A stretch of 33,041 nucleotides of DNA from Methanothermococcus sp. SCGC AD-155-E23 (GCA_019561615.1 JAHEQA010000027.1:1-33041), one strand, 5' to 3'. Positions 3,301-31,784 are shown, counted from the first letter of the stretch. Translations and numbers: made by a program. The notes: generated by a model from the sequence alone, not told the origin.

Positions 3301-4515
3301 TTAGGTAGTGTACTTGGAGTTTAGGGTTACATAGTCATGTCCTAGATCGCAGCCGTAGGAGGTATTCTCATACATCCCCATCTTCAGATCTACAATTATC
3401 TTTACCTTCTTCCCCTTCATAATCTCCCTTGCCATCTTCAACTCCTCCCCCTCCTCATCCACAGGATCCCCATCCTTAACTAAATAGACCTCCCTTCTAT
3501 AATCAGATATTGCAATATCCATAACCCTCATATCCATCTCCGCCCCACTGTATCCCACTGCAGCAGCTATTCTCCCCCAGTTTGGATCTCCACCGTAGAG
3601 GGCTGTCTTTACAAGGAGAGATCTAACAACACTTTTTGAGGCCTTGATTGCATCCTCCTTTGAGGCACAACCTTTAACCACAACCTCCATCATCCTTGTA
3701 CTTCCCTCCCCATCCATCACTATCATCTTGGCCAACTCTCTACATAGGTAGTGGAGAGCCTCTTTAAACAGATCTGGGCACTCCTCATACCTAACGCCAC
3801 TTTCACCATTTGCAAGGATAAATACAGTATCGTTGGTACTTGTATCCCCATCTACAACGGTGTTGTTAAAGGTCTCATCTACAGCATCCTGAAGTACCAC
3901 ACTTAGCTCCTCAGGGTCTATCTTGATATCTGTTGTAATAAAGGAGAGCATAGTTGCATGGAGCATGTTAGGTGCTATCATTCCAGCCCCCTTTGCAGTA
4001 CCTCCTATCCTCACCTTTTTACCCTCTACCTCAAACTCAAGGGCTAGGGTTTTTGGAAACCTGTCTGTGGTAAGTATGGAGAGGGCAAAGTTGTGATTAC
4101 TACTCTCCCTCTTCAACCTCCTACATGTCTCCTCTATACCAGAGAGTATTATATCCATGGGCATCTTCCTTCCAATAACTCCAGTGGAGGCTATTAGGAT
4201 GGAATCCTCTGGGATATTTAGTAGTTCTGCAGTTTTAGATATCATCCTCTTTCCATCTTCGTAACCATTCTTGGTAAAGCAGTTGGCATTCCCACTGTTA
4301 ACCACTATACATCTTAATCTATCCCTGTTTTTCTTCAACACCTCCTTGGATATTACAACAGGGTGGGCAACAACTTTGTTTGTGGTAAAGGTCCCTGCTC
4401 CAGTACAGTTTTTCTCAGAGTATACTATACCTACTCCATACTTACCTTTCCTCCAGCCGTTTGCCCTGAAACCCTTAGGGGCTGTGACACCGTTATCTAT
4501 TACTTTGAAGTTCAT
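3301..4515 (-). CDS. argJ: Ornithine acetyltransferase ArgJ
   Basis: APKGF, FTTNK, NSGNAN, STGVIG, KGAGMIAPNMLHA-TML autoproteolysis site, DGDTSTND, DPNWGRI. Confidence 0.97.
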   Translation of the reverse strand: MNFKVIDNGVTAPKGFRANGWRKGKYGVGIVYSEKNCTGAGTFTTNKVVAHPVVISKEVLKKNRDRLRCIVVNSGNANCFTKNGYEDGKRMISKTAELLNIPEDSILIASTGVIGRKMPMDIILSGIEETCRRLKRESSNHNFALSILTTDRFPKTLALEFEVEGKKVRIGGTAKGAGMIAPNMLHATMLSFITTDIKIDPEELSVVLQDAVDETFNNTVVDGDTSTNDTVFILANGESGVRYEECPDLFKEALHYLCRELAKMIVMDGEGSTRMMEVVVKGCASKEDAIKASKSVVRSLLVKTALYGGDPNWGRIAAAVGYSGAEMDMRVMDIAISDYRREVYLVKDGDPVDEEGEELKMAREIMKGKKVKIIVDLKMGMYENTSYGCDLGHDYVTLNSKYTT

Positions 4516-4687
4516 ATTTTCACCTGTTTTTAAAACCTACATATATGGGGACCACTTACCCTGTTACTATCTATAAAACAGCCCCATGATAAACTCCAGG
4601 ATATTCAAAACTTTCCCAACTTTATTTATAGATGAGATTATAATAATCATTATAAAAATAGCTTTTGTTTTTAGATGGTGTATCACC

Positions 4688-5683
4688 ATGATAGCCCTTA
4701 AATCTCCCTCCAGGATACACATTGGACTTATAGATCTTAACGGCAGTCTAGGTAGGGTGGATGGAGGGTTGGGTATTGCACTGGACTATCCAAACTTCTA
4801 CATTGAGGGTAGGGAAAGTTCAGAGATTGAGATAGAGATAGGGTGTAAGGGGATTCAGGAGGACACCTTAAAAAGTATAAGGGATAGGTTGTATCAGGTG
4901 TCTAGAAGAGTGCTAGACTACATTGGAGAGGAGGGAATCTATATCAAAGTTAGGGATACCATCCCCCTACACAGTGGACTGGGAAGTGGTACCCAGATGG
5001 CACTCTCTACAGGGATGTTGATATCCAAGGTGTATAACAGGGATCTAGATGTTAAAACCTTGGCCAGTATTACAGGTAGAGGTGGAACCTCTGGAATAGG
5101 TGTCTATGCCTTTGAGAGAGGGGGCTTCATAGTAGATGGGGGACATACCTTTGGGAGGGGTAAGGATAAGGAGGTATTTGCCCCTTCCTCCGCCTCGAAA
5201 AATGTAAGGGTACCTCCCCTGATATTTAGACATGACTTCAAGTGGCAGGTTGTACTTACAATACCTAAGGGGGAGAACATCCACGGTGATAGGGAGGTGG
5301 ATATCTTTAGAAGGTACTGCCCTATACCCCTGGAAGAGACCCAGAGGATATGTCACATAGTCCTTATGAAGATGTTACCTGCCATAGTTGAGGGGGATAT
5401 TAAATCCTTCGGTGAAGGTATCAACATACTTCAGTACCTAGGATTTAAGAGGGTGGAGTTGGAACTTCAGAGGGAGACAGTTAGGGAGCTTCTAAGGGAA
5501 CTCCAGAGGGTAGGCTACAGTGGACTCTCCAGTTTTGGACCTACCCTCTACTCCATCTGTGAGGGTAGAGAGGATGTTAAAAAAGTAGTGGAGACCTCCA
5601 GGGATTTTCTTGATAAAAGAGGTATAGAAGGAGAGATAATAGTTACCAGGGGGAATAATCAGGGCTATATTTTGAAATCCTAA
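4688..5683 (+). CDS. mptG: Beta-ribofuranosylaminobenzene 5'-phosphate (beta-RFAP) synthase, GHMP fold
   Basis: SPSRIHIGLIDL, GRVDGGLG, HSGLGSGTQ, GRGGTSGIG, SSFGPT. Start moved to ATG 4688, after a GATGGTG RBS. Confidence 0.9.
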   Translation: MIALKSPSRIHIGLIDLNGSLGRVDGGLGIALDYPNFYIEGRESSEIEIEIGCKGIQEDTLKSIRDRLYQVSRRVLDYIGEEGIYIKVRDTIPLHSGLGSGTQMALSTGMLISKVYNRDLDVKTLASITGRGGTSGIGVYAFERGGFIVDGGHTFGRGKDKEVFAPSSASKNVRVPPLIFRHDFKWQVVLTIPKGENIHGDREVDIFRRYCPIPLEETQRICHIVLMKMLPAIVEGDIKSFGEGINILQYLGFKRVELELQRETVRELLRELQRVGYSGLSSFGPTLYSICEGREDVKKVVETSRDFLDKRGIEGEIIVTRGNNQGYILKS

Positions 5684-12037: not shown

Positions 12038-12125
12038 CGGCGCCGAGGGGGAATCGAACCCCAAGTTCCTAGGAACTGACGGATCTGAAGTCCGCCCCGT
12101 GCCACCAGGCACGGCACTCGGCGCC
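12038..12125 (-). tRNA. selC: tRNA-Sec (TCA)
   Basis: 9-bp acceptor GGCGCCGAG/CTCGGCGCC, 7-bp D stem CCGTGCC/GGCACGG with TGGT loop, anticodon loop CT-TCA-GA, long variable arm AGTTCC/GGAACT, 4-bp T stem GGGG-TTCGATT-CCCC, G discriminator. This is the archaeal 9/4 fold; CCA is not encoded. Confidence 0.95.
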
Positions 12126-26736: not shown

Positions 26737-26798
26737 ACCTGTCAGACAGTGCCGGTATCATCATCTTAGATCAGTGGGGGTAACTCTCATCATCCAGG

Positions 26799-28399: not shown

Positions 28400-30271
28400 T
28401 TACTTAAAGGTAGGTTGCAGGGAACAGTACATAGGTAGGGTCAAAGGTCTATATGGATACCCCTCTGCCTCCTCCTTTATCCTTCTAATCAACTCCTCCA
28501 CATCCATCCTCTCCCTATAACTACCCTTCAGTGTAGACCTCTCCCTAAGTGTAACTGTCAAGGTGTTCTCCTCCACCTCCCTATCTCCCACCACTACCAC
28601 GTAGGGAATCCAATCCTTTCCAGCATTCCTTATCTTTTTACCAACACTTTCCTCCCTGTCATCAAGATCCACCCTGATGTTACTCTCCCTCAGCCTCTTA
28701 ACAACATTTAAGGCGTACTCCCTATGGGCCTCAGATACAGGTATTACCCTAACCTGGACTGGGGATAGCCAGAGAGGTAGCATTGGAAGTTTACCCCTCT
28801 CAAGATCCCTGTAGGCCTTCTCTAGTAGGGCACATATCACCCTCTCAATACTACCAGTTGGGGAGCAGTGAAGTATCACCGGGTATACCTCTCTATCTCC
28901 CTGGTGTACCTTTATCCCAAACCTTTTAGCACTCTCTATATCTATCTGTACAGTGGGGTTTTCAATAGGTCTACCAAGGCTGTCAATTACAGCCATATCC
29001 ACCTTTCCAACCCAGTAGTGTTTCCTCTCAGGTAGTAACTCAATAAGTACATCCCTCTTATACTTCTCCTTATACTTCTTCGCAAGTTTGAAGAACCACT
29101 CCCTGTTCTCCTGGAAGAAGTCCTCTGTAAATCTGAATATTACAACATAGGGTATGTTCAGATCCTCTCCAGTTTTCAGACACATCCAGAATTGATGCTC
29201 AAACTCCTCCATCGCCTGTTCCATATCTAGGCATACCGTATGCATATCAGGCATTGTAAAGGCCCTAAGTCTCTTTAGACCAACAAGTTCTCCCCTCTGC
29301 TCATATCTAAAACTGTAGGTGGAAAGTTCATACAACTTAAGAGGTAGATACCTTGGAAGTATGTACATGTCTCTCTTCATCATGAACTGGCCAAAGCATG
29401 CTGCAAATCTAAGCATCAACTCCCTATCTCCCTGGGTAAACCTATATTGCCTCTCTCCAAACTTATCTGCATGCTCCCTTATAGCCCTGTTCTCCAAATT
29501 GTACATAACTGGTGTCTCTACAGGCATCCCCCCATACTCCACAACTAGGTTGTACACGTAATCTGCCAGGAGATCCCTAATAAGTTTCCCCTTTGGATAC
29601 CATCTGAAGTGACCATGATCTGAGGAGGGCTCGTAATCACAGATCTCCTTCTCCCTTATATACTTCACATGGGCAGGTTCCCCCCTCTCCTCCTTACCCT
29701 TTATACCTAGTTCCTTGTAGGCCAGAGCCTTTAAATCCTCATCTCTTACAACCTCCTGGATATTCCCCTCTTCCAACTCTATAAGTCTCTCCCCCTCTAC
29801 ATCTAGGAGGTAGAGTTTTGACTCCCTTTTCTCTTTCTCCTCCTTCTCCCCTGTATCACAGGTGATCCTCCTGGACAACTCACTTAGTGGATGTCCCTTA
29901 CAACTTATCTTAAAGGACTTATACCATCCAAAGGGTGCCCTCAATACGTTGTAACCCCTCTCCCTTAACCTCTCCTCCATCTCTACAAGTATCTCCCTTG
30001 CAACCTCTGGAGAGGCCAGATCACTTGATAGATGGGCATAGGGGTATACCACTATGTTGTCAACCTTGAGATTTTTGGCAATTTTTGTTATCTCCTCCAA
30101 GGCCTTTTCTACAATGGCCTTTGGATTTGCCTCATCCCCCCTTTCAACTGCGGTAAATACTGTTAAACACTCCTCCATTCTTCCCTCTAACTTGTTAGTA
30201 TCCTCGGCAATTTTTGTCTTCTCAGTGGCCTTAAATTCTAGATAGTCAGCGTGTATCAGTAGTAACCTCAC
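28400..30271 (-). CDS. thrS: Threonyl-tRNA synthetase (archaeal type)
   Basis: Archaeal editing domain LLIH...YPYAHLS...RAPFGWYK...CKGHPLSELSR; LRFAACFG, FTMPDMH, ILHCSPTGSIER; GTG start. Confidence 0.97.
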   Translation of the reverse strand: MRLLLIHADYLEFKATEKTKIAEDTNKLEGRMEECLTVFTAVERGDEANPKAIVEKALEEITKIAKNLKVDNIVVYPYAHLSSDLASPEVAREILVEMEERLRERGYNVLRAPFGWYKSFKISCKGHPLSELSRRITCDTGEKEEKEKRESKLYLLDVEGERLIELEEGNIQEVVRDEDLKALAYKELGIKGKEERGEPAHVKYIREKEICDYEPSSDHGHFRWYPKGKLIRDLLADYVYNLVVEYGGMPVETPVMYNLENRAIREHADKFGERQYRFTQGDRELMLRFAACFGQFMMKRDMYILPRYLPLKLYELSTYSFRYEQRGELVGLKRLRAFTMPDMHTVCLDMEQAMEEFEHQFWMCLKTGEDLNIPYVVIFRFTEDFFQENREWFFKLAKKYKEKYKRDVLIELLPERKHYWVGKVDMAVIDSLGRPIENPTVQIDIESAKRFGIKVHQGDREVYPVILHCSPTGSIERVICALLEKAYRDLERGKLPMLPLWLSPVQVRVIPVSEAHREYALNVVKRLRESNIRVDLDDREESVGKKIRNAGKDWIPYVVVVGDREVEENTLTVTLRERSTLKGSYRERMDVEELIRRIKEEAEGYPYRPLTLPMYCSLQPTFK

Positions 30272-30285
30272 ACTACCCCTCTTGA

Positions 30286-30316
30286 ATGTTTAACAGTTAG
30301 GTATGTTAAACAGTTA
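30286..30316. promoter_or_regulatory. Inverted plus direct repeat at the thrS leader
   Basis: TGTTTAACA-N8-TGTTAAACA is a perfect 9-bp inverted repeat; ATGTTWAACAGTTA also occurs twice 17 nt apart; TATA-like TTTTATA (minus strand) at 30329-30335. Confidence 0.45.
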
Positions 30317-30374
30317 AAAAAGTTAAACTATAAAAATAATTTTTAAAAAAGAGAAGACTTTAACTACTTAAACT

Positions 30375-30520
30375 CCGTTCTGGTTATCTGCTACTTTTAA
30401 AAATATCGTAGCGATAACCTTCCCTCTTATCTGAGGGCTTTCGGGGAAAGAGGAACTCCCCACATCTTCAGGGAATACCTGTAACCATTAGGGCTTAAGT
30501 ACCCATATAGCGGGCATAGG
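30375..30520 (-). ncRNA. Structured ncRNA, HgcC-like / TnpB right-end (omega, sot) RNA-like, with no tnpB ORF
   Basis: Consecutive hairpins TGCCC/GGGTA, CAGG/CCTG, GGGGA/TCCCC, CCCTC/GAGGG and GGTTATC-GCTAC/GTAGC-A-GATAACC, ending AGAACGG. CTGAAGATGTGGGGAGTT reads LKMWGV, as I recall from Thermococcales-type TnpB C-termini. Confidence 0.65.
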
Positions 30521-30536
30521 GAAATATCTCAATGTT

Positions 30537-31001
30537 TCACTTGTTGCTATCTATAAAATCCCCTCTCTTCCATCTCTCAATGATCTCCTTAACTATATCG
30601 TAGGAGCTGTGGAAGGGACACCTTACATACTCCTTACATCTTACAACATCCACCTCTAAGTTGTGTCTCTTCAACTCCTCTTTCAACTGATCTGGATCAA
30701 AGGTCTGCTGATCAGGGCCTAAAACGATAACATCTGGTTTAATATTTAAAATAGGTTCCAACTTGTTATTTAAACTACCAAGTATGGCCTTGTCCACAGG
30801 TTTAAGTGCCTCTACCATAAACCTTCGCTGCTCCTCTGGTATAACAGGTTTCCTACCCTTTATCTTCTTAACAGTCTCATCCCTGGCCACTATAACTATA
30901 AGTTTATCCCCTAGACTCTTGGCATACTTAAGGATGTGGTAATGCCCTGGATGTAAAAGGTCGAAGGTACCGGCAGTTACCACTATCTTCTCTTTTTTCA
31001 T
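30537..31001 (-). CDS. ribL: Archaeal FAD synthase (cytidylyltransferase family)
   Basis: [43 protein letters not shown]; alternative GTG start at 31010. Confidence 0.9.
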
Positions 31002-31029
31002 AGTGCTCACAAAAAAGTTAGTAAAAAAG

Positions 31030-31683
31030 TTAAAGGTCTAGACACTCCCCAACCTTAGGTACAACTACCTTAACACCCATCTCCTCCACTTTCTTTACAA
31101 GCTCTGATATATCCTGCTCTATTAGAGGGAAGGTGTTGTAGTGCATAGGTATGAATACCTTTGGATTTAGATACTCAACAGCCTTCACAGCCTCCTCTGG
31201 TCCCATGGTGTACCTTCCACCTACTGGAAGGAGTACTACCTTTGGGCTGTATATCTCCCCTATAAGTTTCATATCCCCAAAGAGTCCAGTATCTCCTGCG
31301 TGATAGACTCTATCGTTAACTATATATCCTGCAGCCACTCCACCAGGGGTGTTCTCATCTATATCCGAGGAGTGTTCTGCCTTAACCATAGTCAACTTTG
31401 AGTTCTTTATCTCAATGGTCCCTCCTATGTTCATACCCTCTGCAGCAACCCCCTGTCTCCCCAGGTATACAGAGATCTCGTGGTTGGATACCACAGGTAT
31501 GTTGTACCTCTTGGATATCTCCACTGTACTTCCAAGGTGGTCACTGTGGCCATGGGTTACAGCTATAACTTCAACCCCCTTAACAACTTCCTCGTAGCCT
31601 ATGTTACAAAGGGGGTTTGGGACGAAGGGATCTACCAGTACCTTATCTATTTTGAAACATGCATGGCCGTACCAGCATATCAT
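31030..31683 (-). CDS. Metallo-beta-lactamase-fold metal-dependent hydrolase (UPF0173/UlaG-like)
   Basis: WYGHACF, THGHSDH, AEHSS, YHAGDTG, PMHYNTF; start corrected to ATG 31683 because the longer ORF runs into a tRNA. Confidence 0.92.
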
Positions 31684-31707
31684 GTTAGCACCCTCTAGAG
31701 TTGTAAA

Positions 31708-31784
31708 TGGTGCCCCTGTCGGGATTTGAACCCGAGTCTGCGAATCCGCAGTTCGCAAGCATATCCAGGCTAGCCCACAGGGGC
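31708..31784 (-). tRNA. tRNA-Arg (GCG)
   Basis: Reverse complement GCCCCTGTGGGCTAGCCTGGATATGCTTGCGAACT-GCG-GATTCGCAGACTCGGGTTCAAATCCCGACAGGGGCACCA. Confidence 0.97.

Follow-up and report, generated by a model that had tools for sequence, protein, structure and literature searches.

The intergenic gap between ribL and thrS in Methanothermococcus sp. SCGC AD-155-E23 raises the question of whether the structured stretch within it is an RNA gene serving the cell or the relic of a mobile element. In the window (the whole 33,041-nt stretch analysed, JAHEQA010000027.1:1-33041 of GCA_019561615.1), the two genes lie on the minus strand. The ribL gene (30537-31010) encodes a cytidylyltransferase-like FAD synthase (PF01467, E = 6.1e-24), and its downstream neighbour thrS (28400-30271) encodes an archaeal threonyl-tRNA synthetase (PF08915, PF03129 and PF00587). 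A first-pass annotation interpreted the gap as an orphan, HgcC-like TnpB omega-RNA with a candidate guide and with its own promoter and terminator, either domesticated to act in trans or forming a minimal non-autonomous element. The gap was described as unusually long, which is only roughly true: at 265 nt (thrS start at 30271, ribL stop at 30537), it ranks third among the 31 gaps of a crude ORF map of the window, behind gaps of 886 and 342 nt that contain tRNAs and a C/D-box sRNA, with gaps of 250 and 242 nt close behind. The G+C content is 0.39-0.46 across 30350-30549, versus 0.24-0.27 immediately downstream.

At gathering thresholds, a search of the whole window against Rfam returned only tRNAs, a tRNA-Sec and the sRNA sR12, with no family on the stretch of interest, and at E<=10 over 30200-30650 it returned only chance-level matches to Yfr1, U3 and OxyS. 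The tRNA-Sec gene is located at 12039-12125 (minus strand, 68 bits), and the C/D-box sR12 match, at 26741-26795 (minus strand), scores 38.7 bits against a threshold of 38. Another tRNA match, at 31711-31784 (minus strand), overlaps the 5' part of a mechanically listed ORF (31030-31758), which is probably shorter than listed, or spurious, where the two overlap.

The stretch belongs to a repeat family. Five other places in the AD-155-E23 assembly (G000) match a 206-nt stretch of the gap, with E-values of 1.4e-49 to 1.8e-4 and 85-95% identity, and the assembly holds five to six copies; matches to other copies of the genome at E = 1e-49 to 1e-21 place the feature far beyond chance. All the full ends of these copies finish at ...CAGAACGG, with the sequences diverging immediately afterwards, and the sequence following ...ACGG varies between all copies from its very first base, as would a variable 3' guide. 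Of 41 related genomes, 11 gave a match to the element in a DNA search, frequently at the end of a contig. A covariance model (R1) built from 20 copies found 65 matches in 14 of 40 genomes of the order, the 20 training sequences included. As judged by eye, only three of these 65 matches lie on a long TnpB match, which is intact in two genomes (G015 and G032) and carries three stops in another (G031). In three metagenome runs, contigs break at the element and none joins across it, and the runs are thus uninformative about empty-site alleles. Summed depth in one of them (X3) was 770-1589 over 30381-30491, against about 200-220 in the flanks; this excess is not a copy number, but fits a repeat. 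The single metatranscriptome considered has no contig on the element, and says nothing about expression.

Comparison with relatives shows the repeat to be an insertion. The ribL and thrS genes are adjacent in eight genomes of the genus, and six relatives with this synteny (G009, G005, G001, G004, G008 and G002) lack the element between them, R1 giving no match at any of these six loci. The interval in G009 is 58 nt long and reads ...AGGGGAGAGTTTAAAGATTAG..., followed by a T7 run, and those of the other five are different A+T-rich sequences, also lacking the element. The filled site in the window reads ...AGAGGGG(A TTTTATAG...CAGAACGG)AGTTTAAGTAG, with the insertion in brackets, and the sequence past the right end runs AGTTTAAGTAGTTAAAG...TTTTTT. 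Excision of 185 bp restores a RibL terminus of ...R G E F K and stop, as in the relatives; the ribL genes of G009, G005, G001 and G004 end in ...RGEFK(D) and stop, or similarly. The RibL proteins of relatives stop aligning at residues 147-154 of 157, the last 6-7 codons now being supplied by the element. The insertion thus changed the end of RibL from GEFK-stop to GDFIDSNK-stop, and the 24 nt put forward as a guide (30351-30374, minus strand) are the last codons (..E F K), the stop codon (TAG, 30366-30364) and the start of the 3' UTR of ribL as it was before the insertion. Archaeal terminators are oligo-T runs. Given the T7 run at the empty site in G009, the T6 run at 30345-30350 is most simply the pre-existing terminator of ribL, rather than one belonging to the element.

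The whole element extends over 30375-30561 on the minus strand, as the 185 inserted bp (30559-30375) plus a shared GG, on the basis of the comparison of the filled site with the empty sites of G009 and the five other relatives. The presence of GGA at both junctions leaves an uncertainty of up to about 4 nt in its left boundary. The left junction also deviates from the family consensus, with GG-ATTTTATAG (GG-ATTTT) here and GG-GCTGTTTTATAG (GG-GGATTTT) elsewhere, making the exact crossover uncertain. The element is preceded by GGGG (30560-30563), comprising the target or core GG and a TAM-like G-rich flank, and the empty sites read ...GGGGAG... at this place. The junctions are therefore GGGG-A on the left and ...AACGG-A on the right of a GGGGAG target, with no duplication beyond the shared GG(A), and most other copies are likewise bounded by GG, immediately ahead of the left end and at their terminus.

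The closest relative, G011, with a RibL 94% identical to that of AD-155-E23, also carries an insertion at exactly this ribL junction, from which a deletion of about 24 nt spanning the right end has removed that end together with the first ~8 nt of the flank. The interior of the insertion belongs to another subfamily of the element, whereas the sequence on either side is about 97% identical to the window; this pattern requires either gene conversion between copies or a second insertion at one site. The G011 insertion is found at G011:C35:1-240 and at the end of G011:C93 (loci L066 and L037). A ribL–thrS element whose flank is conserved with it throughout the genus was looked for and was not seen. 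The idea of a domesticated guide fares badly against these observations: the guide is the old ribL stop region, six orthologous sites are empty, and the G011 copy lacks the right end.

The element begins with a left-end segment, ATTTTATAGATAGCAACAAG TGAAACATTGAGATAT (30524-30559, minus strand), with a motif common to other copies. This segment provides ribL with its new last codons (DFIDSNK) and stop codon, and its sequence, (A)TTTTATAGATAGCAACAAG..TGAAACATTGAGATAT (30559-30524), recurs on the 5' side of the C29 and C46 copies from the same assembly and of copies from G011 and G017. The left end of the intact G015 element contains TGAAACATTAGAAAT, but the likeness, TGAAACATT.GA.AT, is short (about 14 of 16 nt, judged by eye). 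The TATA-like TTTTATAG (30558-30551), which does lie within the 3' end of ribL and had been taken for a promoter, is part of this conserved transposon left end, where other copies have TTTCATAG or TACTATAG. As read from the sequence, each of the three frames meets a stop codon within about 30 nt in the left end. At least seven copies close a co-oriented upstream ORF in this way, with endings such as AVL, FIDSNK and CFLK before the stop, and insertions at the extreme 3' ends of genes are seen for the left ends of copies in G000 (C27, C29, C46 and C36), G011, G015 and G017.

The remainder of the element, 30375-30523 on the minus strand, is an omega-RNA scaffold derived from the 3' end of a TnpB gene. 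It is 89-95% identical to the other copies in the assembly, homologous to G015:C119:3540-3650, and scores 93.4 bits with R1, the window copy having been part of the training set of that model. It consists of degenerate zinc-finger codons (CPLYG..SPNGYRYS), followed, after a deletion relative to the G015 TnpB, by PEDVGSSSFPES... as far as the right end. The right-end terminus GATAACCAGAACGG (30375-30388), which ends in the core GG (30376-30375), is identical in the C4 and C46 copies and in the intact G015 element, and has one mismatch in C36.

In G015, the homologous sequence is made up of the final ~110 nt of a TnpB ORF, intact and 401 aa long, and of the transposon right end. This ORF (G015:C119, 2436-3638) encodes the Cas12f1-like TNB domain (PF07282, E = 1.1e-21), with a sub-threshold OrfB_IS605 match, and its 3' end is overlapped by the R1 match at 3532-3650. 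The protein ends in ...KISG, its stop codon falling in the 3' arm of the terminal hairpin of the RNA, with the terminus GATAACCAGAACGG 12 nt further on, and G032 has an intact gene 85% identical to it. The scaffold therefore overlaps the tnpB 3' end and runs to the right-end boundary by homology, and its attribution to the TnpB 3' end in the first-pass annotation holds. The peptide evidence then adduced does not: LKMWGVPLSPKA is readable but lies in the wrong frame, the cognate TnpB reading KDVGSSVPPES where the window has PEDVGSSSFPES, and the LKMWGV..PP motif is not in the frame of the cognate protein. Zinc-finger coding sequence had been reported to be lacking upstream, yet CPLYG..SPNGYRYS is what remains, in decayed form, of CPICGGRMSPNGHRV, which makes up the first half of the zinc finger in TnpB (CPLYG from CPICG). 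The ~80 nt that follow this half zinc finger in G015 are absent from all the protein-less copies.

The five consecutive minus-strand hairpins described earlier are present in the minimum-energy fold, at 30511-30484, 30480-30451, 30450-30438, 30437-30422 and 30419-30382. The fold has a z-score of -2.89, and 3 of 200 shuffled sequences fold as well. The terminal AGAACGG (GAACGG at 30380-30375), the 24 nt beyond it and the T6 run are where they had been placed, but the 24 nt are not quite unstructured, a weak A/U hairpin being predicted at 30376-30355. Covariation was assessed for four helices in an alignment of 20 copies from 12 genomes, in which 94.7% of the paired cells can pair, against 25.6-54.8% when the partners are slid. 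Compensatory changes affect six pairs, all in two hairpins: two of the six pairs of H4 (CCCUC AGAUAA GAGGG, 30422-30437) and four of the 13 pairs of the terminal hairpin H5 (GGUUAUCGCUAC...GUAGCAGAUAACC, 30382-30419), both on the minus strand, with AUCC/GGAU, CUCC/GGAG and ACUC/GAGU as examples in H5. A four-pair GGGG/CCCC helix (H3) and a six-pair long-range helix are conserved, without covariation. The long-range helix joins CCGUUC to the terminal GAACGG and is mismatched at two of its six positions in the AD-155-E23 copies; the pairing of GTTC with GAAC suggested previously is possible, but CCGUUC is the better-conserved partner in the family. The element is thus a real structured-RNA family with a scaffold supported by covariation, although relatedness among sequences can inflate covariation counts, and the covariation itself may go back to ancestors that had TnpB. 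The window copy retains intact H4 and H5 stems, and this particular copy may therefore not have decayed; the C36 copy has mismatches in H5, judged by eye.

Searches for the enzymes of such an element found none intact in the assembly. As the earlier annotation noted, no nuclease gene adjoins the scaffold, and no intact TnpB was found in the AD-155-E23 assembly (86% complete, 51 contigs), in which the only PF07282 match over the cut-off is a remnant at the C4 copy, beyond which the G015 TnpB finds nothing as a query. This remnant, of about 51-55 aa (56% identity, E = 4.6e-14; 40 bits with PF07282), precedes the C4 copy, and, with the G015 ORF, it identifies the TnpB of the parent element as one with the RuvC/TNB domain. 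Also upstream of the C4 copy is a 35-aa remnant with 51% identity to the C-terminal end of a G015 TnpA of IS607 type (E = 1.5e-5); the intact cognate TnpB gene of G015 has no TnpA beside it. A TnpB or TnpA gene could be missing from an assembly of this completeness, repeats and insertion sequences often remaining unassembled. However, none of the five other carriers in the genus (G011, G009, G004, G001 and G005, with 9, 8, 7, 3 and 1 R1 matches, respectively) has a PF07282 match over the cut-off, and four of the five are 96-99% complete, with G004 (5 contigs) and G005 (1 contig) at 99%. The serine transposase domain PF00239 gave no match in G000, G011, G009, G004, G005 or G024. G017 has five nearly identical long copies, together with four IS607-type TnpA genes located beside unrelated TnpBs (33% identity or less); mobilisation in trans is plausible in that genome.

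The gap stretch is very probably a fossil non-autonomous element, derived from IS607, with an orphan omega-RNA scaffold. Its parent would be an insertion sequence of the IS607 family (serine-recombinase TnpA plus TnpB), of which internal deletion would have left 185 bp without a protein gene, and its target would have been a GG dinucleotide among the final codons of ribL. About 36 nt of left end would have been joined directly to the last ~150 nt of the parent, the tnpB 3' end doubling as omega-RNA (reRNA) scaffold as far as ...CAGAACGG. In an active element, the RNA would continue into the flank, which would serve as the guide, and TnpB would cut the empty donor site (G-rich motif plus flank), with restoration of the transposon; the "guide" of the window would be exactly such a flank, the old ribL stop region. 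Any RNA would most likely result from read-through of ribL, as a structured 3' UTR ending at the old T-run of that gene. The GG at both junctions and the lack of target duplication match descriptions of IS607, the accessible part of one of which gives a GG core at junctions and target and no target duplication (Chen et al., 2018, PMC6188088); in the part available of another, IS607 TnpB has a TGGG TAM and a scaffold ending in ...UCGG (Zedaveinyte et al., PMC10690162). The system looks dead in the AD-155-E23 genome, given that intact TnpB and TnpA genes were not found in its assembly, its copies differ by about 10% and have broken stem pairs, and the copy in G011 is devoid of a right end.

A different reading would make the stretch a working stand-alone omega-RNA, transcribed and serving in trans a compatible TnpB whose gene would lie in the 14% of the genome left unassembled, or on a plasmid, a virus or an incoming insertion sequence. 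Partial accounts indicate that stand-alone omega-RNAs work in trans with compatible effectors (PMC10691335) and that PATEs encode omega-RNAs (PMC10055086), and the intact H4 and H5 of the window copy and the 86% completeness of the assembly are consistent with such a role. It nonetheless seems unlikely, given the presence of only a short TnpB remnant in the assembly, the five same-genus carriers without a TnpB domain over the cut-off, and the mutation of the CCGUUC/GAACGG pairing at two of six positions in the assembly's own copies. The first 20 nt of the guide have no second match with two mismatches or fewer in the assembly, the closest differing at 3 of 20 positions, and the guide's own target, the empty site, is gone from the genome. 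Alternatively, the scaffolds of the family may have been kept for a TnpB-independent host role (3'-UTR/terminator module or small RNA) or as a guide reservoir for an incoming cognate TnpB. This idea draws on intact covarying stems in genomes of the genus free of TnpB and transposase and on the co-oriented position of the copies at gene 3' ends, but such retention appears improbable.

Exaptation of this copy as a host RNA independent of TnpB (a structured ribL 3' UTR, a thrS leader or a small RNA) is very unlikely. The element is co-oriented with ribL, precedes its T-run and is probably included in its transcript; the family displays compensatory changes, and several copies lie at gene 3' ends, where the left end brings stop codons for every frame. 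Overexpression of a PATE-derived RNA, according to the portion of the report available, improved the growth of Halobacterium (PMC4615843). However, covariation can be inherited from TnpB-bearing ancestors, a position at gene 3' ends is expected from purifying selection against disruptive insertions, and, of the eight genomes with ribL–thrS synteny, six have an empty site and G011 a truncated copy. A thrS leader or riboswitch was considered separately and rejected, the orthologous intervals lacking the element. Membership of the HgcC family (RF00062) may be considered extremely unlikely. HgcC occurs in the same habitat, in multiple copies and with a G+C content above that of its surroundings, and it shares a right-end-like tetraloop with tnpB-overlapping RNAs in the accessible part of one study (PMC4615843). 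The suggested likeness to HgcC is nevertheless contradicted by the failure of RF00062 to match the region at E<=10 or to match anywhere in the genome, with 67 candidates scored, and in relatives HgcC matches loci other than those of the element, G017 having six HgcC matches and matches to the element at different coordinates. HgcC membership was rejected on the 50-bit gathering threshold, which was not reached.

The fossil IS607-derived element, the "minimal non-autonomous element" of the first-pass annotation, is of the same kind as known protein-less omega-RNA-bearing derivatives. Like the omega-RNA (reRNA) of IS607 TnpB, its scaffold overlaps the tnpB 3' end, runs to the right end, finishes in ...CGG next to the core GG and has several hairpins with covarying stems, with the flank in the position of the guide and a G-rich flank at the other junction. 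Unlike that RNA, it has no tnpB in cis or found in the genome, it has lost part of the tnpB 3' region relative to the G015 gene, and it matches no Rfam family. As in the stand-alone omega-RNAs and PATEs described in the accessible parts of the reports of Altae-Tran et al. and Meers et al., the ends are fused without an ORF, the element is multi-copy and the scaffold is kept. VNG_R0052 of Halobacterium is likewise a protein-less left-end/right-end fusion, and is transcribed, according to part of the report of Gomes-Filho et al. (2015, PMC4615843). The parent here would, in contrast, be an IS607-type element with a serine recombinase and a GG core, rather than a Y1/HUH IS605 element, and the host is a vent archaeon; furthermore, the stand-alone omega-RNAs in the available portion of PMC10691335 are found in genomes also encoding the effector, whereas no effector was found here in the genome itself or in five others of the genus. 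The element resembles MITEs in its 185-bp length, the absence of an ORF, the retention of both ends of the parent insertion sequence, its several copies and the existence of filled and empty sites. It differs from them in lacking terminal inverted repeats and target-site duplication, as expected for IS607. The resemblance to HgcC, in copy number within the same archaeal group and in G+C content relative to the surroundings, extends neither to sequence nor to structure. No description of this element family was found in searches of the literature for Methanocaldococcus MITEs and for orphan or stand-alone IS607 guide RNAs, subscription journals and supplements lying outside the scope of these searches.

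These results allow a conspicuous structured repeat, found between genes in vent archaea and lying outside Rfam, to be annotated correctly. They also indicate that a guide-like 3' tail and a T-run beside a scaffold need not mean domestication, as both belong here to an old gene end. Across 14 of 40 genomes, the family of protein-less scaffolds derived from IS607 has 65 model matches, of which two fall on intact cognate TnpB genes; the family persists where no TnpB or transposase was found, and constitutes a natural data set for scaffold covariation and element decay. The intact TnpBs of G015 and G032, with their scaffolds and G-rich flank motif, are candidates for biochemical study.

Several minor observations concern fragments and neighbours of the family. 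A solitary left-end-like fragment, GGGGCTGTTTTATAGATAGTAACAGG, with two mismatches to the left-end motif of the ribL copy, is present at 4560-4582 (minus strand) of the window, in a 70-nt divergent promoter region between ORFs 3301-4515 (minus strand) and 4586-5683 (plus strand), with no right end nearby. In C36 (G000:C36:88515-89464, plus strand), about 950 bp separate the scaffold and right end from an upstream left-end motif, GGGCTGTACTATAGATAGCAAC, with which an ORF ends (...CTIDSNI and stop). The interior between these ends has no long ORF and no TnpB similarity, and this copy may be a longer degraded element or a carrier of other cargo. As judged by eye, five strong RF00062 matches in relatives have a TnpB-like match on the opposite strand, with its 5' side roughly 100-300 nt away (G026:C1:23835-23963, G039:C25:2705-2833, G037:C67:29641-29767, G015:C116:37031-37142 and G017:C1:1053350-1053476). 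Of the other 21 HgcC matches above the cut-off, most are without a neighbouring TnpB match, and some occur in tandem pairs. HgcC may, thus, belong to another TnpB-linked family of mobile elements.
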